Assembly (NCBI RefSeq): GCF_011045215.1
Contig: NZ_CP049201.1
DNA: 64,000 nucleotides
Origin: Escherichia coli
Lineage (GTDB): Bacteria > Pseudomonadota > Gammaproteobacteria > Enterobacterales > Enterobacteriaceae
Strand: one strand, 5' to 3'
In this document: positions 6,907 through 58,082 of the stretch, one piece after another
Numbering within the stretch: position 1 is the stretch's first letter
Layout of the letters: the number at the start of each line of letters is the position of its first letter
Notes under the pieces: model-generated
Told to the model about the DNA's origin: nothing
Database searches by the model: none
The model's input: the letters and a program-made list of their open reading frames with translations, nothing else
Program-made: the position numbers and the translations under genes

Positions 6907-6954
6907 GGTATTGTCGGATGCGTCGCGTGGCGCATCCGACAGTTGTGCGCAGAT

Positions 6955-12827: not shown

Positions 12828-14009
12828 ATGCGCAACCATCAAAAGACGTTCACGATACTGCTGGTTCTGGTGCTGATTGGTCTTAATATGCGACCTCTGC
12901 TCACCTCCGTCGGGCCACTGCTACCGCAATTGCGCCAGGCAAGCGGAATGAGCTTTAGCGTGGCTGCCCGGTTGACCGCTCTGCCGGTGGTTACCATGGG
13001 CGGGCTGGCGCTGGCCGGAAGCTGGCTTCATCAGCATGTCAGCGAACGTCGCAGCGTCGCCATCAGTTTGTTACTGATTGCCGTCGGTGCATTGATGCGT
13101 GAGCTTTACCCCCAAAGTGCGCTGCTGCTTAGCAGCGCACTGCTCGGTGGGGTGGGGATCGGCATCATTCAGGCGGTGATGCCTTCGGTGATTAAACGGC
13201 GGTTTCAGCAGCGCACGCCACTGGTGATGGGGCTGTGGTCCGCGGCTCTGATGGGCGGCGGTGGGCTTGGTGCCGCCCTGACACCCTGGTTAGTTCAACA
13301 TAGCGAAACCTGGTATCAAACACTCGCCTGGTGGGCGCTGCCTGCCGTTGTTGCGCTCTTTGCCTGGTGGTGGTGAAGCGCCCGCGAGGTCGCCTCTTCC
13401 CACAAGACAACAACCACTCCGGTTCGCGTGGTTTTCACTCCTCGCGCGTGGACGCTGGGTGTTTACTTCGGTCTGATTAACGGTGGTTACGCCAGCCTGA
13501 TTGCCTGGTTACCCGCCTTCTATATTGAGATTGGTGCCAGCGCGCAGTACAGCGGTTCCTTGCTGGCATTGATGACGCTTGGGCAAGCCGCAGGAGCTTT
13601 GCTGATGCCTGCTATGGCTCGCCATCAGGATCGGCGCAAACTTTTGCTGTTGGCACTGGCGTTACAACTGGTGGGTTTCTGCGGCTTTATCTGGCTGCCG
13701 CTGCAATTGCCGGTATTGTGGGCGATGGTGTGTGGTTTAGGTCTGGGCGGCGCATTTCCGCTCTGTTTGCTGCTGGCTCTCGATCACTCTGTGCAACCGG
13801 CTATTGCTGGCAAGCTGGTGGCGTTTATGCAGGGGATCGGTTTTATCATCGCCGGGCTTGCCCCGTGGTTTTCTGGCGTGCTGCGTAGTATCAGCGGCAA
13901 TTACCTGATGGACTGGGCGTTTCATGCGCTGTGCGTCGTTGGGCTGATGATTATAACCCTGCGTTTTGCACCAGCACGTTTTCCGCAGCTGTGGGTCAAA
14001 GAGGCATAA
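12828..14009 (+). pseudogene. cynX: Cyanate transporter CynX (MFS), interrupted by an in-frame TGA at 13374-13376
   Basis: ORFs 12828-13376 and 13428-14009 are in the same frame and together reconstitute a CynX-like protein (...ALFAWWW*SAREVASSHKTTTTPVRVVFTPRAW...). Only the single stop codon breaks the reading frame. Confidence 0.6.
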
Positions 14010-16093: not shown

Positions 16094-19206
<3,113 letters not shown>

Positions 19207-19212
19207 TCACAC

Positions 19213-19242
19213 AACATACGAGTCGGACGCATAAAGTGTAAA
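19213..19242 (-). promoter_or_regulatory. lac promoter P1 (-10 TATGTT and -35 TTTACA, 18-bp spacer)
   Basis: Plus-strand aacata at 19213-19218 is the -10 and tgtaaa at 19237-19242 is the -35. The spacer has two substitutions relative to the familiar K-12 sequence. Confidence 0.85.
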
Positions 19243-29535: not shown

Positions 29536-30075
29536 ATGGCAAAACTTACCTTACAAGAGCAGTTGCTCAAAGCAGGATTAGTCACCAGCAAAAAAGCGGC
29601 GAAGGTCGAGAGAACGGCGAAAAAATCGCGCGTTCAGGCGCGTGAAGCTCGGGCGGCGGTAGAAGAAAATAAAAAGGCACAGCTTGAGCGTGATAAACAG
29701 CTTAGCGAACAGCAAAAACAAGCGGCGTTGGCGAAAGAATATAAAGCCCAGGTGAAGCAGCTCATTGAAATGAACCGAATCACCATTGCCAATGGCGATA
29801 TTGGTTTTAACTTCACTGACGGCAATCTGATTAAGAAGATTTTTGTCGATAAGCTCACACAGGCGCAGTTGATTAATGGTCGTCTGGCGATTGCCCGCTT
29901 GTTGGTCGATAACAATAGCGAAGGTGAATACGCCATTATTCCCGCCAGCGTTGCCGATAAAATTGCTCAGCGTGATGCCAGCAGTATTGTGTTGCACAGC
30001 GCGCTCAGTGCCGAAGAGCAGGATGAAGACGATCCGTATGCCGACTTCAAAGTGCCTGATGATTTGATGTGGTAA
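29536..30075 (+). CDS. yaiL: DUF2058-family protein YaiL
   Basis: Protein MAKLTLQEQLLKAGLVTSKKAAKVERTAKKSR..., 179 aa. The ORF-track start is 39 codons upstream. Confidence 0.8.
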   Translation: MAKLTLQEQLLKAGLVTSKKAAKVERTAKKSRVQAREARAAVEENKKAQLERDKQLSEQQKQAALAKEYKAQVKQLIEMNRITIANGDIGFNFTDGNLIKKIFVDKLTQAQLINGRLAIARLLVDNNSEGEYAIIPASVADKIAQRDASSIVLHSALSAEEQDEDDPYADFKVPDDLMW

Positions 30076-30199: not shown

Positions 30200-31033
30200 T
30201 CAACGCATATTCAGTTTATTGGCGTGGTAGGCAATATGCTCGCCAATAAAACTGGAGACAAAATAATAGCTGTGGTCGTAACCCTCGTGATAACGGATTA
30301 ACGTCTTGATATTCATCTCCTGGCAGATCTTTTCAAGATTTTGAGTCCGCAGCTGTTCCGCGTAAAAATCATCACTCAACCCCTGATCAACCATGATTTC
30401 CGCAACGCGTTGACCTTGTGAAATAAGACTCACCGGGTCGTAATCCAACCAGGCCTCTTTATTTTCACCAAGATATGCAGCAAAGGCTTGCTGTCCCCAC
30501 GGCACTTGCGATGGGGAGACAATGGGCGAAAACGCCGAGACGCTGACATATTCATCTGGGTTACGTAACGCCAGCACCAGCGCGCCCAGCCCGCCCATAG
30601 AATGACCAGAGATAGACTTTTTGGCCGTTGCCGGAAAATGTTGCATCACTAAATCCGGCAGCTCGTTGCGGATATAGTCATACATTTTGTAATGTTCATT
30701 CCACGGCGCTTGCGTCGCGTTCAGGTAAAACCCGGCACCTTGCCCGAGATCGTAACGGTCGGCATCTGCGACATGACTGCCTCGCGGACTGGTGTCCGGC
30801 GCAACAATAATAATGTTGTGCTCAGCCGCGTAACGCTGCATCCCCGATTTAGTAATGAAATTCTGCTCATTGCAGGTCAGGCCCGAAAGCCAGTACAGCA
30901 CAGGTAATTTTTCACCTGCAGCTTTTGGTGGGAGATAGACGCCGACATTCATTTCACATTTCAGTGATGCGGAATAATGCCGATACACATTTTGCCAGCC
31001 GCCAAAGCTGGCATGTTTTTCAATGAGTTCCAT
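30200..31033 (-). CDS. frmB: S-formylglutathione hydrolase
   Basis: 277-aa ORF, MELIEKHASFGGWQNVYRHYSASL..., esterase D family with GHSMGG. Confidence 0.93.
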   Translation of the reverse strand: MELIEKHASFGGWQNVYRHYSASLKCEMNVGVYLPPKAAGEKLPVLYWLSGLTCNEQNFITKSGMQRYAAEHNIIIVAPDTSPRGSHVADADRYDLGQGAGFYLNATQAPWNEHYKMYDYIRNELPDLVMQHFPATAKKSISGHSMGGLGALVLALRNPDEYVSVSAFSPIVSPSQVPWGQQAFAAYLGENKEAWLDYDPVSLISQGQRVAEIMVDQGLSDDFYAEQLRTQNLEKICQEMNIKTLIRYHEGYDHSYYFVSSFIGEHIAYHANKLNMR

Positions 31034-31125
31034 CAGTCATTATCTCACGGTTAATCCCCCGGACGGCTGCCCGGGGAGAGTATTAAGAACCCCGCCTGAA
31101 CTGGACGGGGTAAACCAGCGGGAAA

Positions 31126-32265
<1,140 letters not shown>

Positions 32266-32269
32266 TCAG

Positions 32270-32545
32270 CTATTTAAGATAGGCACGAACCAGTTCAATA
32301 GTGTCGTCAACGGATTGGCTGACTTCGCGGCTGTAGCAGTCATTTCGGTCAAACGTTTCCCGGATATGGCTTTCAAGCACTTCTGCCATCAGCCCATTAG
32401 CCGCGCCCCGAACGGCAGCGATCTGTTGGAGTATGGCACGGCATTCGGCATCACCCTCCAGCGACCGTTCCAGAGCATCAATCTGCCCTCGAATACGACG
32501 AACTCGAGTAAGGACCTTTTTCTTCTCTTCCGGAGTACTGGGCAT
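32270..32545 (-). CDS. frmR: Formaldehyde-responsive repressor FrmR (CsoR/RcnR family)
   Basis: Protein [48 protein letters not shown]..., 91 aa. The ORF track starts 7 codons upstream. Confidence 0.9.
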
Positions 32546-32570
32546 TTCGCACCTCATCATCTGCATGCAA

Positions 32571-32622
32571 TATACTATAGGGGGGTATGCTATATGTCAA
32601 TGCATACCCCCCTATAGTATAT
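32571..32622 (-). promoter_or_regulatory. frmRAB promoter/operator: long G/C-tract inverted repeat
   Basis: atactataggggggtatgc ... gcatacccccctatagtat forms a near-perfect palindrome immediately upstream of frmR. Confidence 0.7.
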
Positions 32623-32704
32623 AACACTGGAGAATAATTGTTGTCCGAAGCCTAACCAGGCGAACGGTCCCTCAAGACAGATGGGGACCGTTTATGTGCT
32701 ATTT

Positions 32705-33751
32705 TTATGCCGCATCCGCTAAAACAAACATCCCGTAAGGATGGATTTCGAGGTAATAGTGCTCACCAATATCGGGCTGTAAACGGGTGGCGTTTACTTG
32801 TAATAAAATCTCCTGTCCATGCCACTCTACGGTCACTTCGTACTGCGGCCCCATGTAGGCGACATGGCGAATAACACAACGCTGACTCTCTTCGCCGTGA
32901 TTGCTTAAGGTGATGGCTTCCGGGCGAACGCCGACGGTGCCGCTACCTTGCGCCGGGAAATGCGCCGCGCGCGGCAGGCGATAACCGTAGATATCGACAT
33001 ACTCTTCGCTAAAGTTCGCCGGGAACAGGTTGGCGTCGCCCATAAAACTTGCCATAAATCGGGAGGCTGGCTGACGATAGAGATCCTGCGGTGAGCCAAT
33101 CTGCATGATGTGACCTTTATTCATCACCAGCACAGTGTCGGACACCGCGAAAGCTTCACTTTGATCGTGAGTGACGTAGAGCGACGTGATATTAAACTGC
33201 TTTTGCAGCTCGCGGATCTTATCGCGCATACTGCGGCGCAGGTTGGCATCGAGGTTACTTAACGGCTCATCAAACAGCAGCACCTTTGGCTTGAGGATCA
33301 ACGCGCGGGCCAGTGCCACACGCTGTTGCTGACCACCGGAAATCTGATCGACATAGCGGTCCTCGAAGCCTTCCAGATCCACCATTGCCAGCGCCTCCTT
33401 CACCCGCTGTTTCACTTCGCTACGCGACACGCCAAGCATCTTCAGCCCGTAGCCAACGTTTTCACCCAGCGACATATGCGGGAACAGAGCGTATGACTGA
33501 AACACCATGCAGATATCGCGCTGTTGAATGGAACGATGCGTGACATCTTCGCCATCAATAAAAATTTGCCCTTCGCTCGGTTTTTCCAGCCCGGCAACCA
33601 GACGCAAAATGGTGGTTTTGCCACAGCCGGAAGGACCGAGCAGCGTCACCATTTGCCCTTGTGGAATGGTGAGATTGATATTGTCGATAACCGTATTACT
33701 GCCGAATCGTTTAGTGACGTTGCGCAGTTCAACAAAATTTTTCTGACTCAT
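32705..33751 (-). CDS. afuC: ABC transporter ATP-binding subunit, AfuC/FbpC-type, with a C-terminal TOBE-like domain
   Basis: Walker [13 protein letters not shown] signature [15 protein letters not shown], Walker [12 protein letters not shown]. Start chosen at the second ATG ([12 protein letters not shown]...), which has a GGAG Shine-Dalgarno sequence; the ORF-track ATG at 33763 overlaps the afuB stop as TAATG. Confidence 0.85.
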
Positions 33752-33762
33752 AGTGCGCTCCA

Positions 33763-35841
33763 TTACGCCTGGTTTTTGGCTTTAGAACGGGAGATACGAG
33801 CTTCTCCGATCAGCCAGTCAAAGAGGAAAATAATCGCCAGCATCACCACGATCAGAATCGAACCATAGGCGATGGCTACGCCATATTCGCCGTCTTCAAC
33901 GCGGTTAAGAATGTAGGCGGTTGCCACGCGGGTGTCCGGCGTGACGAGAAAGACGATGGCGCTGACCGTCGTGATGGCCCGCACAAAGCTGTAGATCAGG
34001 GCCGAGAGAATGGCCGGACGCAGCAGCGGCAGTAAAATGTGGGTTATGGTTCGCAAGGAACCCGCGCGCAGGCTGAGTGAGGCTTCATCCAGCGATTTGT
34101 CGATCTGCCCCAGACCCGCAATCCCGGCGCGAATACCCACCGGAACGTTACGCATCACCATCGAGATAATCACAATTGCCGCCGTTCCGGTGAGATAAAC
34201 CGGAGCGCTGTTAAAGGCAAGAATATACGAAACGCCCGCCACCGTACCCGGTACGGCAAAGCACAGCATGGTGGTGAACTCGATGGTCTTTTTGCCTTTG
34301 AATTGTTGACGCACCACCACCCAGGCGATGAGCAGGCCAAAGATAGCGGTAATGGGAGCGGCAATCCCGGCGTAGAGCAGGGTATCCAGCAGTGAAGGCC
34401 ACGCGCCGTCGCTCATTCCCTGACCAAATAGCTTGATAAAGTTATCCAGCGTCAGGGTGTAGTCCACGCCCCAGTTCACCGTGAAGCTGCCGTAGAAAAT
34501 GCTGCCGTAGAGCAGGGCGTTAAAGGCAATCCATATCGCAAGTATGGCGACCACGCTCCACACCAGGGTGACCGGTAGCGGCTGGACGTCGCCACGGTAG
34601 GATTTGCCGGAAACCGTGACGTAAGAGCGTTTACCAATCCACATATACTGGATGCAGAACACCAGCAGCGAGAACAGCAGCAGGAAAGCGCCAAGGGTGC
34701 TGGCGGCCTGATAATCCAGCTGCGAGCCGGTAATATAGAAGTAAATTTGCGTCGCCAGTACGTCGAAGTTACCGCCAAGTACCAGCGGGTTACTGAAATC
34801 AGCCAGTGACTGTACCACGACGATTAAAAAGGCATTGGCGAGTGCGGGCTTTAGCAACGGCACAAACACGCCGTTAAAGGTTTGCCAGCGGCTGGCGCGC
34901 AGGGTGTAGGAGGCCTCTTCCAGCGAGGGATGAATGGTTTTAATGGCCCCGTCGAGGATCATAAATGCCATTGGCGTGAATGCCAGAACCTGTGCCAGCC
35001 AGATCCCGGTAAAACCGTACAGCCAGTTGGTGTTGGTCAGCCCAAACCACTCCACCATAAATTCCGTAACATAGCCGGAGCGCCCCATCATGAGCGTCAC
35101 GCCTAAGCCGACCACAAACGGTGGCGTAACGATGGGCAAAATGGAAAAGATGCGACCAATAATGGCGCTGCGTTTAGCGATGCGCGTGGTATAAATCGCC
35201 AGCACCAGGCCGAAGAAAGTACAGCCTATCCCCACCGCTATCGACAAGACGATAGAGTTGACGATCACCTGAACAATATGTGCCTGCGAGAGCACGGTCA
35301 TAAACGCCAGCGGGGCGAACTCTCCCGCGTCGTTGGTGAACATCGGGATAAAAATGGCGATGCTCGGCCAGACGATAAAAATGCCAATCAGCGCCACAAT
35401 CGCAATCAGTGAGCCGATCACGAAGCGGTCGCCGCCCAGCCATTCGAGGCGGGTTAAGGCCAGCGTCATAATCGCGCCTAGTTCAACAAACAGCACGATG
35501 GCGGCGTAGCCTAAACCGCGTCCAGCCACGGTGGCGCTGATGACGATAAACGCCATACAGAGCAATGCCCAGCTGGCATCAAAATAATGACGACTACGCT
35601 GTTCGCGTGTGACCTCACGAAACGGGCGAACCAGCAACAGACTCGGTAACAAATACCACAGCCAGCTGATATTAAAATGCGACCAGCCATAAGCCTCGAG
35701 GATCTCATCACTCGTGGACTCCAGCAGGCCATAATCGAGGCTCCAGCTCGGCAACAGTATAAATGCCAGCCAGCCCAGCAAAACCCAAAGGAAAATCGCA
35801 TCCCGCTTTTTCACGGGATGGAGTGCAAGTGTCTGTGACAT
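33763..35841 (-). CDS. afuB: ABC transporter permease, fused two-domain FbpB/AfuB type
   Basis: About 692 aa and highly hydrophobic, with duplicated permease halves. Start taken at the ATG giving [14 protein letters not shown]...; the ORF-track start at 35892 is a TTG. Confidence 0.8.
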
Positions 35842-35909
35842 AGCAGTTCCGGTATGGTTGGCCGGGGCAGGCGTTTGTGCTGCACCCGGCAAATACGCCT
35901 AATGCGGGT

Positions 35910-36941
35910 TTATTTACCCATCTTCACTTCGCTGACCCATTTATTAATCAATGCCTTACGAACATCCGTGGAACCATATTTATCCATGTCGTAGTTGATT
36001 AATTTCAGGTCGTCGAGCTTCAGCGAATTTGGCGACGTTTCGGCGGTGGTATTGGTCAGGATCTGATAAGACTTCCCTTTCTTCCACGCCAGTTCCTGAG
36101 CTTCTTTTGATAATACCCAGTCCACAAACAGTTTGGCGTTGTCGAGGTTGCGCGCGCCTTTCAGAATGCTGACGCCGCCAATTTCGTAGCCCGTACCTTC
36201 ACACGGGGAAATCAACTCCAGCGGCGCGCCCTGTTCTTTTTCCAGCGAGTAGTCATGCAGGAAGCCAATACCAATCGCCGTTTCGCCACGGGCGGCGTTA
36301 CGTGCCGGGGCTATGCCTGATTTGGTGTACTGAGAGACGTTGGCGTTCAGTTGTTTTAGATAATCAAAGGCCTGATCTTCCCCCCACAGCTGCGCAAAAG
36401 TAGCCAGGGCGGTGTAGGCAGTACCGGAACTTTGCGGATCGGCAATTTGAATTTCGCCTTTATATTCCGGTTTGGTGAGATCTTTCCAGCACTTCGGCAC
36501 CGGCAGGTTTTTCTCTTTCAGACGATCGGTGTTTACGCCAAAACCGAGGATCCCCACATAAACGGCAGAGGACAGATTCCCTTTCACTTTTGCCGGATCG
36601 CGGAATTTCTCCATGATCTGCTCAAGGTTAGGGGATTTATACGCCTGTAGCAGGCCCATCTCGCCAGCCTGCGATTGCGGGTCTAAAGTGCCGCCGTACC
36701 AGACGTCAGCCTGGGGGTTTTTCTTTTCAGCATCGACTTTTGCCAGGGTGCTTCCGGAACCGTTGCGGATAAACGAGGTTTTTACATCATATTTCTCGCC
36801 AAACGCTTTGGTTTCGGCCTCACACATTTCATTGGTGGCGCTGCAATAGACCACCAGCCGGCCTTTTGCCTGCGCGGCACCCGTTAAAGTCGCCAGCGCA
36901 ACGGCAGAAGCAATCAGAGTAGAGGTAAAGGTCATTTTCAT
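35910..36941 (-). CDS. afuA: Periplasmic substrate-binding protein, AfuA-type (sugar-phosphate/ferric-binding fold family)
   Basis: Start at the ATG at 36941-36939, preceded by AAGGA, giving MKMTFTSTLIASAVALATLTGAAQA-KGR... with a clear signal peptide; 343 aa. The ORF track extends 109 codons upstream with no support. Confidence 0.85.
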   Translation of the reverse strand: MKMTFTSTLIASAVALATLTGAAQAKGRLVVYCSATNEMCEAETKAFGEKYDVKTSFIRNGSGSTLAKVDAEKKNPQADVWYGGTLDPQSQAGEMGLLQAYKSPNLEQIMEKFRDPAKVKGNLSSAVYVGILGFGVNTDRLKEKNLPVPKCWKDLTKPEYKGEIQIADPQSSGTAYTALATFAQLWGEDQAFDYLKQLNANVSQYTKSGIAPARNAARGETAIGIGFLHDYSLEKEQGAPLELISPCEGTGYEIGGVSILKGARNLDNAKLFVDWVLSKEAQELAWKKGKSYQILTNTTAETSPNSLKLDDLKLINYDMDKYGSTDVRKALINKWVSEVKMGK

Positions 36942-38242
36942 TGTTTTATCCTTCGAGCGTGAGTGGTGGTGATGCCCGCCATCAGTAACGGCATCAGCAG
37001 TAAACCCATAAGTACTGCGGCGACCGAGAGTAAACTGAACATTCCCGGCCAGCCGTAGCGTTCGATGACCAGCGACAGCGGCCAGCCTGCCAGCGCCGCG
37101 CCAAGGTAAGCGAACAGGCCGAGAAATCCGGTGATTGAACCCGCCGCAGCTTTGTGCCCACACTCCACCGCCGCAAGTCCAATCAGCATTTGTGGGCCAA
37201 AGACGAAAAAGCCCACGGTAAAAAAGCACACTGCCAGCAGAGCGTAGTGATGAACCGGTGCCAGCCACAGTGCGGCGACTGACACCATCAACCCCAACGT
37301 GAACAGCAAAATCATTGGCGCTCGTTGCCCGCTAAACAGCAAATCCGATCCCCATCCGGCAAATAACGCGCCGAGTAAGCCGCCCACTTCAAACAGCATT
37401 ACCGTGGCGTTGGCGCTGAGCAGGTTGACACCGTGGCTTTCCGTCAGCCAGATATTGCCCCAGTCGTTAAGCGCAATCCGGATCACATAAACCAGTACAT
37501 AAGAGACGCCCAGTAGCCAGATCAGCGGATTTTGCAGCATGGTGGTGCGCAACATTTGCCACAGCCCCATCGGCGGACTTTGTTGTTCCTGACGTAACTC
37601 CAGCGGATCGTGACGCCAGTGACCAACTGTCGGTAATCCCTCTTCCTGGGGCGTGCCTTTGAGTTGTAGCGTTAACCAGATCCCTAATGCCATGCTGATT
37701 ATCCCCGGTGTCAGCATCGCGGCCTGCCAGCCCCACCAGTGGGCGGCAAAGGCGCTAATCAGCGGAATAATCGCTCCGCCAATGTTGATCGACATATTCC
37801 AGCAGCCCCACCAGAAACCGCGCTCATTGCGTGAGTACCAGTGGGTCAGCAAGCGGGCACACGGTGGCCATCCCCAGCCCTGAAAAAAACCGTTCAGTGT
37901 CCAGACCACAAGCAGAAGCGTAAGTGATTCGCCAAAGGCAAACACCACGTTCAATAACCCGGTGGCGAACAAGCCGACGCCCATAAAACCGCGTTGTCCG
38001 TGGCTGTCATGCCACAGTCCGGCGGTAAATTTCGACAATCCGTAGCTGAGATAAAACAGCGAACCCAGCAGGCCAATGTCGCCTTTATCCAGTCCGAGGT
38101 CGGTTTGTAGCGCCGGAAGGACGTAATTCACGCTTTTTCGCGTCAGATAAAATGCGGCGTAGCCAATAATCATGCACATCAGCAATCGCGGACGTAATGT
38201 CCGGTAGCATTGATTAATTTCTCTCGCTGAACGCGCGTGCAT
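36938..38242 (-). CDS. MFS organophosphate:phosphate antiporter-family protein, UhpC-like (probable sugar-phosphate sensor)
   Basis: About 434 aa with UhpC/UhpT-like sequence (...YAAFYLTRKSVNYVLPALQTDLGL...). Its TGA stop overlaps the afuA ATG (ATGA). Start probably at the second ATG (GGAGA Shine-Dalgarno); 38254 is the alternative. Confidence 0.8.
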   Translation of the reverse strand: MHARSAREINQCYRTLRPRLLMCMIIGYAAFYLTRKSVNYVLPALQTDLGLDKGDIGLLGSLFYLSYGLSKFTAGLWHDSHGQRGFMGVGLFATGLLNVVFAFGESLTLLLVVWTLNGFFQGWGWPPCARLLTHWYSRNERGFWWGCWNMSINIGGAIIPLISAFAAHWWGWQAAMLTPGIISMALGIWLTLQLKGTPQEEGLPTVGHWRHDPLELRQEQQSPPMGLWQMLRTTMLQNPLIWLLGVSYVLVYVIRIALNDWGNIWLTESHGVNLLSANATVMLFEVGGLLGALFAGWGSDLLFSGQRAPMILLFTLGLMVSVAALWLAPVHHYALLAVCFFTVGFFVFGPQMLIGLAAVECGHKAAAGSITGFLGLFAYLGAALAGWPLSLVIERYGWPGMFSLLSVAAVLMGLLLMPLLMAGITTTHARRIKQ

Positions 38243-38326
38243 GGTTGTCTCCATGTTGCTGACTATATGAAAATGAAAGTGAAAGGGGATGAGAGAAAAT
38301 CCGGGATACCTAAGACTTTTTCCTGG

Positions 38327-39868
38327 TTATCCGGCGATTTGTTGCAAAAATGTGGGCAAGTTAACAATTACCCGCGTGCCGTGCTGTTTTTCGAGCGTTA
38401 AGTCGCCGCCCAGGGCGCTGACGCGCTCACGCATCCCCTGAATGCCAAATCCGGCCATTTTCCCGCTGGCGATCCCCACACCGTTGTCGCTGACTTCCAG
38501 ATGCAATACCTCTCCCTGCTGGCGCAGGATAATCGTCACTTCGCTGGCTTCGGCGTGTTTACAGATGTTATTGAGCAACTCCTGCAATAACCGATACAAG
38601 GTAAAGCGCACCGTTTCGTTTTCTGGTGTGGAGTTCAGTTGATAGGCAAACTGGCAATGAATGCCGCGTTCACTAAAGGCAAATTCATTAATCAGATGCA
38701 ACAACGCTTCGCGAAATGTCAGTTCATCAAGCGCGGGAGGCCGCAACTGGCGTAGCAATTGGCGGGTGGAGAGATGAATGCGGCGGGCGAGCTCATTGAT
38801 TTGGCTGGCTGCGGATTGAATTTGCGCCGGATCACGCGCCCGCTTCACCAGTTGCGACTGGATCTGAATGGCGGTGATGTTCTGACCGATTTCGTCGTGC
38901 AGCTCTCGCGCCAGGTTTTTTCGCGTGTCCTCCTCGGTGTGGATCAGCTTTTCCGCCAATGCCCGCCGCGCTGCCAGCTCGGCCTCCAGCCGTTGTCGGT
39001 AATGGTGCAGGTTTAGCGCCAGATGTTGCTGGCGACTGATGGCAATGCCCAGGCCAATTCCCAGCAAGGCCTGGGTCGCGAGGAAAATCTCCAGCTCCAC
39101 CAGGTTACTAAAGCCCACGCCAATCTGGCGGGCGATGGTGATCATCATGCTGCCCAAAAGCCCGGAGAGTACGCCACCTTGCCAGCCAAATTTCCACGCC
39201 ATCACCACATTGGGCAAAAAGACCACGATCAACAGCAGACGTTCAATTTCAGGTGACAGCACCATCTGAGTGCCGATACCAATAATAAAAAACAGGCTAC
39301 ACCAGATGATTAAAGAGGTACGCAAGGGGGGATTATGCGTATCGAGTCCCAGGAGCTGGTAGCGATGCTGCTGGCGCAGAAACTCAAAGATAAGATAGAC
39401 AAACGGCGTCAGTAATACGCCGCCGGTAAATGAGGTCAAACCCGGCAGCATTATTGGGCCCGACATAAAAGGGGAGAGCAGGGCGGTATTCAACAATGAA
39501 GCTGCCGTGACAGTGGCTAACAGCAACGTCAGACGCTGCCAGTAAAGTGGAAAACGGTGCCAGAAGTTTTGCGCAAGGAGGACAGGAAACAGGCTAATAA
39601 CCGGCGTTGCCAGCATGAGATAACCGTTCAATAGCTGTTCACTATGGAGCCAGAACATCATCAGCAAAGGGGGGAGCACCAACGCAGGCCAGTAGCGGCG
39701 AGAGAGCAAAATAACAAGGGCGAGATAAACTCCCTGAGGGAGAAACAACACTGCCTGTTGACCGTTATTGGTCAGATAAAAGCTGAGCGTCCACAGCATC
39801 AGCCAGCCGGTTCCCCAGGCCAGCACAATAAACAGCGAAATCACCCAATGACGAAGATTGCGCGACAT
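38327..39868 (-). CDS. Membrane sensor histidine kinase, UhpB-like (MASE1 N-terminal domain, HisKA_3, HATPase)
   Basis: 513 aa with about 8 N-terminal transmembrane helices, an H-box RELHDEIGQNITAIQ, and ATPase motifs DNGVGI...GFGIQGMRERV. Confidence 0.85.
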   Translation of the reverse strand: MSRNLRHWVISLFIVLAWGTGWLMLWTLSFYLTNNGQQAVLFLPQGVYLALVILLSRRYWPALVLPPLLMMFWLHSEQLLNGYLMLATPVISLFPVLLAQNFWHRFPLYWQRLTLLLATVTAASLLNTALLSPFMSGPIMLPGLTSFTGGVLLTPFVYLIFEFLRQQHRYQLLGLDTHNPPLRTSLIIWCSLFFIIGIGTQMVLSPEIERLLLIVVFLPNVVMAWKFGWQGGVLSGLLGSMMITIARQIGVGFSNLVELEIFLATQALLGIGLGIAISRQQHLALNLHHYRQRLEAELAARRALAEKLIHTEEDTRKNLARELHDEIGQNITAIQIQSQLVKRARDPAQIQSAASQINELARRIHLSTRQLLRQLRPPALDELTFREALLHLINEFAFSERGIHCQFAYQLNSTPENETVRFTLYRLLQELLNNICKHAEASEVTIILRQQGEVLHLEVSDNGVGIASGKMAGFGIQGMRERVSALGGDLTLEKQHGTRVIVNLPTFLQQIAG

Positions 39869-40497
39869 TAATGCCCCGCCAGCAGATGGTGGTCGAGCGC
39901 AAAATGTACCAGTTCAATGGTGCTATGGCAGTTCAGTTTTCCCAGCACATTGGCGCGATGCACATGTACCGTTTTATGACTGAGTTCGAGTTTAAAGGCG
40001 ATCTCTTTAACGCTGTCTCCTTTGACCAGTAAATCAAACACTTCACGTTCTCGTGGGGTGAGAATTTCTAGCGCCTGGGCGGGTTGCCCGCCGCCGCGTA
40101 AAGCCCGAATCGCATCGGCACAGAGATAATGCCCGCCCAGCCCGACCGAGCGCACCGCCTGTACTAACTCTTCCGGCCCACAGCGTTTGGTTAAATACCC
40201 GCTGGCACCAGCATCCAGCGCGCTTTGCACAAAGGTTGGCGCGTCATAAATGCTAAGAATAATGGCGCGAAATTGCGGTTTTTGTGCACGCAGGCGCTTA
40301 AGCAAACTGAGGCCGTTTTCGTCCGGCATGGCAATATCAATGACGGCAACATTGACGTCATCACGGATTAATGCCGACCATGCCTGCGCGGCACTACTGT
40401 ACTGACCAATGACCTCCAGATCGTCTTCCAGAGAGAGTAATTGTGCGAAGCCAGAGCGCACCACCACATGGTCATCCACCAGCACTACCCGAATCAT
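39868..40497 (-). CDS. Response regulator, UhpA-like (NarL/LuxR family)
   Basis: 209 aa, MIRVVLVDDHVVVRSGFAQLL... receiver domain plus a C-terminal LuxR HTH (TPREREVFDLLVKGDSVKEIAFKLELSHKTVHVHRANVLGKL). Its TAA stop overlaps the kinase ATG (TAATG). Confidence 0.85.
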   Translation of the reverse strand: MIRVVLVDDHVVVRSGFAQLLSLEDDLEVIGQYSSAAQAWSALIRDDVNVAVIDIAMPDENGLSLLKRLRAQKPQFRAIILSIYDAPTFVQSALDAGASGYLTKRCGPEELVQAVRSVGLGGHYLCADAIRALRGGGQPAQALEILTPREREVFDLLVKGDSVKEIAFKLELSHKTVHVHRANVLGKLNCHSTIELVHFALDHHLLAGH

Positions 40498-40799
40498 ACT
40501 TTTCTTCTCTTATTATCTAATTCTCCTATCATGCATCACGGCGCGGCGCTGGCAATCAACCAGCGACAGATATGGAATGGATGTAACAAAATGGCAATAA
40601 TTTGCCGGAGCGCACACATCTTATCTGGCTTGTGAACCGGCGGGATACGTTCGCCAAAACCGCAAAATGCGCAAACTCGCTAACCATTGCCGATTTTTTT
40701 CTAAAAACGCTTTGTTCTTAACAAGACCTTTTAATTCCTTTATCAAACTGACCCGCAACGAAATACTGCTCCCATAACAAGACAGGGGAGCAGACAATC

Positions 40800-48820: not shown

Positions 48821-49509
<689 letters not shown>

Positions 49510-50667
49510 TCAGGATGCGGGGATAACCAACGGTTTATTCCCGCTTAGCTCGGTCACCAGATCATTGATGCCATCGCTCATATTTTTAAAGCGCGTCAAC
49601 GGCGAACGAGTGACCACCACAAATGCGCCAATATTCTTCTGCGGGATCATCGCCATATAGGTAATGAAACCGCCACCACCGCCTGTCTTCTGAATAATCC
49701 CCGGACGACCCTCTTTCGGGGCCATATATACCCAGCCTAAACCAAGCGCATCCGCTTTGCCGGGGACATCCATGCCAATCACTTTCGTAAACTGCGCGCG
49801 CTGATAAATCAACGTCTGCATGCGATCTGCCTGGTTACTGCGCTGATAAAAATCAGATGACAAATACTGCTGCATCCAGCGCATCATATCGCCAGGCGTG
49901 GAATAGACGCCGCCGCTGCCAATTGCCGCCAGCGTGTTATTGCACGGACTGGCTCCGCGCTCAGCAACCATTAAACGGCGGCACTGATCCGGTGAGGGGG
50001 TGTAGGTGGTGTCTTTCATCCCCAATGGACGGGTAATCTGCTCTTCAAACAACTGGGTATAAGGCTTGCCGGACGCATTCGCCAGTGCATCTGCCAGCAG
50101 GTCGAACGCAAGGTTAGAGTACGCCGCCTGACTGCCTGGCGCGGCTTTCAGCTTCGCCGTAGAAAGGTATTTCCAGCGTTGCTCGCGCGTTGGCCAGACA
50201 AACACCGGACGATGTGCCGCGCCACCGGGCTGTTCACGGGGCAGGGCGCTGGTATGGGTTGCCAGATTGACCAGCGTAATGGGCGTCCCATTGTAGGTTG
50301 GCACGCGTGCGCCTGGCGGAGCATATTTACTTAGCGGATCGTTTAACTTCACGGTCCCCTGGTCGAGCAATTTCACCAGCATCTCACTGGTCATTAGCTT
50401 GGTGAGGGAAGCAATACGCACGACCGAATCCAGCTGCGGGCGAACGTTATTACCAGGTCGCGTTTCGCCATAACTGCGAAAGACGCGCTGGTTACCGTCG
50501 ATAACAACCAGCGCCATCCCCGTGGCACCGCTGCCGTAAAAAATATGATCGGCATAACGATCGACAATATCAGAGGCAAACTCCGGTTCAGTGATCGGCT
50601 GCGCCGCATGGACGGAGGTCAATGACGCCGCACACAGCACGGCAGAAAAAAGCAGACTACGTTTCAA
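49510..50667 (-). CDS. ampH: Penicillin-binding protein AmpH (class C beta-lactamase-like, D-alanyl-D-alanine carboxypeptidase/endopeptidase)
   Basis: 385-aa ORF, MKRSLLFSAVLCAASLTSVHA..., with an SxxK motif (IASLTK). Confidence 0.92.
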   Translation of the reverse strand: MKRSLLFSAVLCAASLTSVHAAQPITEPEFASDIVDRYADHIFYGSGATGMALVVIDGNQRVFRSYGETRPGNNVRPQLDSVVRIASLTKLMTSEMLVKLLDQGTVKLNDPLSKYAPPGARVPTYNGTPITLVNLATHTSALPREQPGGAAHRPVFVWPTREQRWKYLSTAKLKAAPGSQAAYSNLAFDLLADALANASGKPYTQLFEEQITRPLGMKDTTYTPSPDQCRRLMVAERGASPCNNTLAAIGSGGVYSTPGDMMRWMQQYLSSDFYQRSNQADRMQTLIYQRAQFTKVIGMDVPGKADALGLGWVYMAPKEGRPGIIQKTGGGGGFITYMAMIPQKNIGAFVVVTRSPLTRFKNMSDGINDLVTELSGNKPLVIPAS

Positions 50668-57981: not shown

Positions 57982-58082
57982 CACCTGATAGTGCTAACGG
58001 GTGAGCTACGAAAATGGCTCACCCGAAATTTCATACTTCTGCCTTTAGCCCCGTCTCTATAATTTGGGAAAATTGTTTCTGA

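Follow-up and report, generated by a model that had tools for sequence, protein, structure and literature searches.

The hairpin that separates frmR from afuC in the 64,000-nucleotide stretch of Escherichia coli DNA analysed here (the window, which covers the lac-mhp-yaiL-frmBAR region) lies inside an inserted block, O-island 20 (OI-20), immediately 3′ of afuC, with which the afu operon ends. The two other alleles of this locus lack it, and a hairpin is found again after afuC in a second genomic context. We tentatively propose that it is a gene-end (3′-end) stem-loop of the afu transcript, a reading that we regard as plausible, if somewhat short of probable, and for which we infer the strand of action and the effect on RNA.

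Results

The stem-loop had been described in the original prediction as GGTCCCT (32666-32672), the loop caagacagat (32673-32682) and GGGGACC (32683-32689), followed by a T-rich run, gtttatgtgctattttta (32690-32707). Reading of the sequence verified these segments, and the stem-loop is real, although its stem is longer than was stated: AACGGTCCC (32663-32671) is perfectly complementary to GGGACCGTT (32684-32692), which gives nine Watson-Crick pairs (six of them G-C), and a T32672-G32683 wobble adds a further pair on top, on the plus strand only. The loop has 10 nt when this U-G pair is counted and 12 nt otherwise; a 7-nt loop appears in the minimum-free-energy fold only via a bulge and two added pairs. 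As an isolated 30-mer, the hairpin folds on both strands, with -15.4 kcal/mol for the plus (z-score versus dinucleotide shuffles, -3.4) and -16.3 kcal/mol for the minus strand (z-score, -3.9). The minus-strand fold is thus at least as stable as the plus-strand one, as would suit a structure of the afu RNA.

The palindrome is present in a single copy in the window even when up to three mismatches are allowed (chance expectation, 0.02 matches). The 64 kb hold nine sites with a perfect stem of at least 9 bp and a loop of up to 12 nt, versus about 3.6 in shuffles; this class of hairpin is enriched in the window, and one instance of it is no proof of function. Other perfect stems of at least 9 bp lie at 6912-6941, 13116-13141, 19179-19213 (which includes the lac operator), 48839-48868 (stem of 13 bp, loop of 4 nt), 49003-49026, 50485-50514 and 57998-58025, and the palindrome of the frmR control region, presumably the FrmR operator, also falls in this class. 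An Rfam 15 covariance search of 32000-33300 with E-values up to 10 found nothing at 32638-32704; its sole matches in that region were sub-threshold microRNA and snoRNA hits located on the same frmR control palindrome. Beside the main hairpin, the island trailer holds a small one with a 4-bp stem, which is weak and has strain variants (AGGC/AGGT and GCCT/GTCT). A 14-codon open reading frame on the plus strand (32694-32738) begins 6 nt past the hairpin-arm GGGGA and extends, antisense, into the end of afuC. Its first codons are changed non-synonymously in the copy of strain 6883 (MRYVY...), so it is probably no gene and is not treated as one.

The genes on both sides of the hairpin, afuA-afuB-afuC and frmR-frmA-frmB, all lie on the minus strand (Table 1), a point that the original prediction missed. 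The RNA polymerase that reaches the hairpin therefore comes from the afu operon, with the frmR promoter lying about 65 nt ahead, and it is the afu operon's own transcription that most needs an end here. The position of the stem, 12 nt past the afuC stop codon and on the strand common to all six genes, is one argument for a stem-loop at the afu 3′ end. The mechanically called afuC frame has 352 aa; the RefSeq start is an ATG 12 bases downstream (33751), which gives 348 aa, and the stop codon occupies bases 32705-32707 of the minus strand. In strain PapM-32-1, whose spacer is 100% identical, RefSeq annotates on the frmR strand fbpC (afuC), an ABC permease, a substrate-binding protein, a UhpC-type MFS transporter, a MASE1 histidine kinase and a response regulator, and tauABCD comes after this six-gene block. 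The frmR control region contains a perfect 21-bp inverted repeat, which we take to be the FrmR operator, and within it the sole promoter-like site of the frmR-afuC spacer (minus strand; TTGACA, 17 nt, TAGTAT; 32600..32572). No promoter-like site was predicted on the plus strand in 31000-34500. The earlier statement that no plus-strand gene lies upstream is correct, the nearest being yaiL, which ends at 30075.

Table 1. Positions of the hairpin, the island limits and the neighbouring genes in the window.
Feature	Position	Strand	Basis
frmB	30200-31033	-	ORF list
frmA	31126-32235	-	ORF list
frmR coding sequence (backbone)	32270..32545	-	ORF list; RefSeq annotation of the identical PapM-32-1 locus and of K-12
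Perfect 21-bp inverted repeat with 11-bp spacer, frmR control region (backbone)	32570..32622		Repeat and promoter scans; in 5,412/5,426 genomes
Last 15 bases of shared backbone (ending ACACTGGAGAATAA)	32623..32637		Megablast; alignments with K-12 and the empty-site allele
Inserted block, O-island 20, 8,026 bp	32638..40663		Junction alignments; RefSeq gene content; PMC4546632
Small hairpin GCCT-aacc-AGGC, 4 bp, in the island trailer	32650..32661		Folds; strain variants
Hairpin AACGGTCCC / 12 nt / GGGACCGTT, 12 nt 3′ of the afuC stop on the minus strand	32663..32692		Sequence, folds, shuffles
Interrupted T-rich stretch gtttatgtgctattttta	32690..32707	+	Sequence, ORF list, scan
afuC (annotated fbpC), ABC-transporter ATPase, last afu operon gene	32705..33763	-	ORF list; RefSeq; Pfam ABC_tran and TOBE_2
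ABC permease ORF, 709 aa	33763-35892	-	ORF list
Resumed backbone, 136 bp upstream of the tauA ATG (40800), common to the empty-site allele	40664..40799	+	Alignments

When the 159 bases at 32546-32704 were searched by megablast, the first 92 (window 32546-32637) were matched in 5,412 of the 5,426 complete E. coli genomes covered, and the full 159 bases in only 450. Alignment with genomes that lack the afu block, which had been proposed as the way to place the junction, yielded an exact boundary: with both K-12 and the empty site, the left island junction falls between 32637 and 32638. As the hairpin starts at 32663, that is, 26 bp inside the island, it is not at the junction. The block replaces 77 bp of the empty site without target duplication, and no direct or inverted repeats pairing the island ends were found. 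These results dispose of the idea that the hairpin is a remnant of the insertion junction, as does its occurrence after afuC in an unrelated context (see below). As an attachment site or insertion scar it was likewise rejected, being 26 bp off the boundary of a block that has neither end repeats nor a duplication.

The block carries, on the minus strand, afuC, afuB, afuA, a uhpC-like MFS gene and the genes for a MASE1 histidine kinase (fusK) and a response regulator (fusR). OI-20 of EHEC O157:H7 encodes the AfuABC sugar-phosphate uptake system and the FusKR two-component system (PMC4546632), and O157:H7 genomes are 99.4% identical to 32630-32790 (blastn). The block is OI-20, with afuABC, the uhpC-like transporter gene and the FusK and FusR genes, adjoining frmR; it agrees with the EHEC O157:H7 island (afuABC, Z0461, fusKR) in gene content and in its neighbour frmR, with no difference at the level of the island.

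Three alleles of the frmR-tauA spacer were found among the 5,426 complete E. coli genomes: an empty one with a REP element (594 genomes), the afu/fus block, OI-20 (450), and the yaiO..yaiS block of K-12 in the rest, which are the majority. In the K-12 allele (L001:6093-11310) the backbone ends with GGAGAATAA and continues at the junction with AATTTATCCGGTGAATG, followed by yaiO, a transferase gene, IS2, yaiP and yaiS. The empty allele, which we found via contigs encoding an identical FrmR, has a frmR-tauA gap of only 305 bp (L090:2196-2500), in which GGAGAATAA is followed by AATTTATCCGG, a REP-like palindrome and then AAAATGCGCAAACTCGC, onward to tauA. Neither the afu/fus block nor the yaiO..yaiS block has terminal repeats. 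The original prediction had named the same hairpin in genomes without the afu block as the observation that would assign it to the frmR locus; it is absent from K-12-type and empty-type spacers, where homology ends at 32637, and sensitive blastn finds it only at the afu block. The hairpin came with the island and is not part of the frmR locus, as would be expected of an element of the afu operon.

The K-12 allele has a positional counterpart of the afuC hairpin, the GC-rich hairpin GCCGCCC..GGGCGGC, 8 nt past the yaiO stop codon and before the frmR promoter, which by position also favours a gene-end role. Between the backbone junction and the yaiO stop (L001:6120-6180) this allele contains a ten-G run in addition to that hairpin. 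At the other end of the spacer, 136 bp before the tauA ATG are common to the OI-20 and empty alleles, and K-12 is homologous only from 38 bp upstream of the ATG (window 40762; L001:11100-11350), so the tauABCD promoter region may differ in the K-12-type allele from that of the other two.

In a few strains the same six-gene block is present in integrase-bearing islands elsewhere in the chromosome, which shows it to be a movable cargo module that is not tied to frmR. In strains 6883 and GN06667 it stands beside tyrosine-recombinase genes (L083:9037-16829 and L084:9023-16815, respectively). The gene that neighbours the afuC end in strain 6883 is unrelated to frmR; nevertheless, GTCCCCTC-agagcaa-GAGGGGAC is found there at the same distance after afuC and folds with -16.5 kcal/mol on the afuC strand. 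Its stem is retained with the register shifted by one base, although identity to the window in the trailer farther on is only ~60% (hand count). A register-shifted hairpin after afuC in an integrase island indicates that the hairpin belongs to the afuC 3′ flank and travels with this gene, as an afu 3′ end would.

Strain GN06667 points the other way. It retains the afuC-proximal arm along with the 12-nt spacer and has the distal arm replaced by a sequence ending GTGTATAAGAGACAG, while all six genes of the block are annotated without pseudogene flags; the hairpin may thus be dispensable. Adjoining the remaining arm (L084:8972-8990) is TTTGTGTATAAGAGACAG, whose reverse complement, CTGTCTCTTATACACAAA, we take to resemble an IS50/Tn5-type outside end, which suggests that an IS insertion, or a remnant of one, may have removed the distal arm.

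At the frmR site, copies of the 159 bp differ at 1-4 positions. In the copies examined, the nine core pairs are invariant, and the variable positions are the loop (A/G) and the top pair, the T-G of which is T-T in Z0117EC0005. This pattern, with the core fixed and the loop and top wobble free, favours the gene-end stem-loop; since the copies are nearly identical, however, the invariance of the stem has little weight. No true compensatory substitution was found among the E. coli copies, one lineage having a register shift only. The diverged E. coli species representative, SCPM-O-B-8794 (L003, NZ_JAATUR010000034.1), has GGAGACC as its proximal arm, a variant that might have disclosed a compensatory change, and its contig ends in the loop, 35 nt past the afuC stop; this arm variant was found in no complete genome (best identity, 93.6%). 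A metagenome scan with the afuC-proximal arm and spacer returned three contigs, all of the frmR-site type and with no new variation.

Outside Escherichia, no homologue of the 67-nt trailer was found after afuC in 80 loci of other genera, where only chance words of 11-12 nt matched. Unrelated hairpins of -10 kcal/mol or lower start at most 70 nt after the stop codon in 63 of 71 afuC loci of other genera, a proportion that is uncalibrated against random intergenic DNA; 47 of the 63, which are mostly REP-like, are without both a U-tail and an A-head. A stem-loop right after the last gene is a general pattern at such positions, and by analogy it supports the same role for the hairpin of E. coli. 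In Serratia (L030, L031, L042), CGGYCATYCC-loop-GGRRTGRCCG lies ~31 nt past the afuC stop, with AAUAA before and AAAAUAA after it; as in E. coli, the A-rich or T-rich flank is that of the antisense side only, and the sequence has no detectable homology to the E. coli trailer.

We then compared both strands with the criteria for an intrinsic terminator (a G+C-rich stem of at least 5 pairs, a loop of 3-8 nt and a U-tract of at least 5/8), also in a relaxed form with loops of up to 12 nt. The standard scan called the hairpin on neither strand and the relaxed scan on the plus strand only. On the minus strand, a stem of nine Watson-Crick pairs (-16.3 kcal/mol) is followed by CGCCUGGU, with 2 U in 8, or by UUCGCCUG, with 3 U, for a stem that stops at ...GGGACCG; the stem is adequate and the U-tract is wanting under the standard and the relaxed criteria alike. 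Without a U-tract, the hairpin would not be an efficient intrinsic terminator of the afu operon on its own. On the plus strand the hairpin is followed by UAUGUGCUAUUUUUA, and the T content of the tail depends on where the stem is ended: TTTATGTG has 5 T in 8 only with the stem ended two pairs earlier, at ...GGGACCG (RNA tail UUUAUGUG, 5 U in 8), and the full stem leaves TATGTGCT with 4/8. The T-rich run seen in the original prediction is thus present, but it is interrupted, and it ends in the three bases (32705-32707) that are complementary to the afuC stop codon; read on the minus strand, the stretch is the A-rich spacer UAAAAAUAGCACAUAAAC between this stop and the hairpin. The plus-strand loop of 10-12 nt is beyond the 3-8 nt of the criterion, and there is no transcription unit to be ended, with no gene nearer than yaiL and no promoter-like site in 31000-34500. 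Neither strand therefore qualifies as a canonical intrinsic terminator, given the large loop, a minus strand devoid of a U-tract and a plus-strand T-run that is interrupted and overlaps the afuC stop.

Discussion

In enterobacteria, stem-loops without a U-tract at gene ends reportedly (Dar and Sorek, in 2018) define or protect the 3′ ends of mRNAs whose termination was Rho-dependent or inefficient. The hairpin resembles these gene-end (3′ UTR) stem-loops in having a stable GC-rich stem right after the operon's last stop codon, no U-tract on the sense strand and a single genomic copy, and unrelated hairpins stand likewise after afuC in most other genera and after yaiO in K-12. It differs from them in its unusually large loop (10-12 nt) and in the short distance, ~65 nt, to the next promoter, and the role that the resemblance would give it here is conjectural. 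It lies in a 3′ trailer of ~67 nt that came with the 8-kb OI-20 block when this replaced 77 bp of the frmR-tauA spacer. Transcription of the afu operon on the minus strand, toward frmR, would form the stem-loop in the RNA 12 nt past the stop codon. There it would stop 3′-to-5′ exonucleases and pause RNA polymerase, in this way marking or protecting the end of the afu mRNA, and it would limit run-on from the afu operon into the FrmR-controlled frmRAB promoter ~65 nt downstream. Against such a role stand the two U of the minus-strand tail; a loop that is large for a terminator, with the sole T-rich flank on the plus strand; the loss of the distal arm in GN06667, where the six genes remain unflagged; and a trailer that has no homologue outside Escherichia and no true compensatory change within E. 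coli. Term-seq, dRNA-seq and RNA-seq data of EHEC Sakai are public (Sy et al. 2020, PMC7547250; GEO GSE143631).

It is possible, though we lean against it, that the hairpin is a neutral passenger with no present function, either a relic of earlier surroundings of the afu block or a chance repeat, preserved for no other reason than that the E. coli copies are 98-100% identical throughout. The few differences among frmR-site copies (1-4 in 159 bp), the truncated hairpin of GN06667, the 80 loci of other genera with no trailer homologue and the lack of a canonical terminator on both strands all agree with this, and about a third of such hairpins in the window may be due to chance. However, strain 6883 keeps a stable stem by a register shift despite the drift of its trailer, and the spot right after an operon's last stop codon is the usual place of functional stem-loops, as in 63 of 71 other afuC loci.

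A plus-strand intrinsic terminator or insulator, as first suggested, seems unlikely. On this account the hairpin, with UUUAUGUG...UUUUU, would stop rightward transcripts from the frmR region before they became antisense to afuC, or it would be the leftover half of a bidirectional terminator from a gene converging on afuC. The suggestion gained no positive support: there is no plus promoter in the frmR control region, the loop measures 10-12 nt and the T-run is interrupted. Only the plus strand has any T-tail (5 T in 8 nt past ...GGGACCG), which keeps a terminator there within consideration, and it is also the strand of the relaxed call and the only one with the top U-G pair. Yet that pair is U-U in Z0117EC0005, and the relaxed scan made 15 plus-strand calls in the 64 kb, this hairpin included, several of them within genes, so that a single call carries little weight. 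The distal part of the T-run is the afuC stop codon together with the A-rich spacer, which explains the run without a terminator role. No plus promoter was predicted from frmR to the hairpin, and the nearest plus-strand gene ends 2.6 kb upstream. A plus-strand phosphoethanolamine transferase gene does converge on afuC in the 6883 island, but it ends ~280 bp short of the hairpin. In comparison with intrinsic terminators, including bidirectional ones, the hairpin thus has the 9-10 bp stem, the six G-C pairs and one T-rich flank (plus strand, 5 T/8); it departs from them in its loop beyond 3-8 nt, the interrupted T-run, the lack of a U-tract on the minus strand and of a gene or predicted promoter feeding the T-rich side, and in being uncalled by the standard scan.

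Quite unlikely, in our estimate, is an island-borne insulator that would either end afu transcription without a U-tract, through the help of a factor or pausing, or stop antisense transcription on the plus strand. The formaldehyde-responsive frmRAB promoter and the sugar-phosphate (afu) operon, ~100 bp apart, would thereby stay transcriptionally independent, and the yaiO and afu cassettes would each have brought an element of their own.

We also rejected a REP or BIME element. The hairpin is, like these, an intergenic palindrome after a gene, and REP-type elements do stand at the corresponding place behind afuC of Citrobacter and Klebsiella, as well as in the empty frmR-tauA spacer of E. coli; unlike them, it occurs once per genome (a median of one place per genome by megablast and blastn, and one copy in the window) and has no similarity to the REP sequences of these loci.

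The island and its gene content are already known, and the hairpin, real but ordinary, fits the broad class of gene-end stem-loops. A literature search found no paper that usefully links afuC and frmR, and no mention of a 3′ element of OI-20 or of the hairpin. The findings have little import beyond annotation, where their use lies in the exact limits of OI-20 in the window (32638-40663), the recognition of the frmR-tauA spacer as a three-allele hot spot and the placing of the hairpin in the 3′ flank of afuC. Should the hairpin, as a gene-end stem-loop, shape the 3′ end of the afu mRNA, it would affect how strongly induction of the sugar-phosphate transporter carries over into the operon for formaldehyde detoxification in EHEC and related strains, a modest regulatory detail.

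Highly improbable is a site acting at the level of DNA, that is, a 9-bp inverted repeat bound by a dimeric protein (e.g. FusR) or a recombination site for cassette exchange: only its geometry, with arm centres 21 bp apart near one end of the three-form segment, speaks for it, whereas no second half-site pair was found anywhere in the window, island promoter regions included, no matching repeat stands at the island ends, the junction is 26 bp away, and its loop is no more like the tauA leader hairpin, on the other side of the variable region, than expected by chance. Kinship with that leader hairpin had been considered because of a common 8-mer, CAAGACAG, and TCCC/GGGA stems, and was put down to chance, the local alignment score of 16 being the mean of random window pieces. 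The tauA leader hairpin itself (40766-40793; CTGCTCCC-ataacaagacag-GGGAGCAG, 8-bp stem) lies directly upstream of the tauA start, includes the likely ribosome-binding GGGGAG and is kept in all three alleles.
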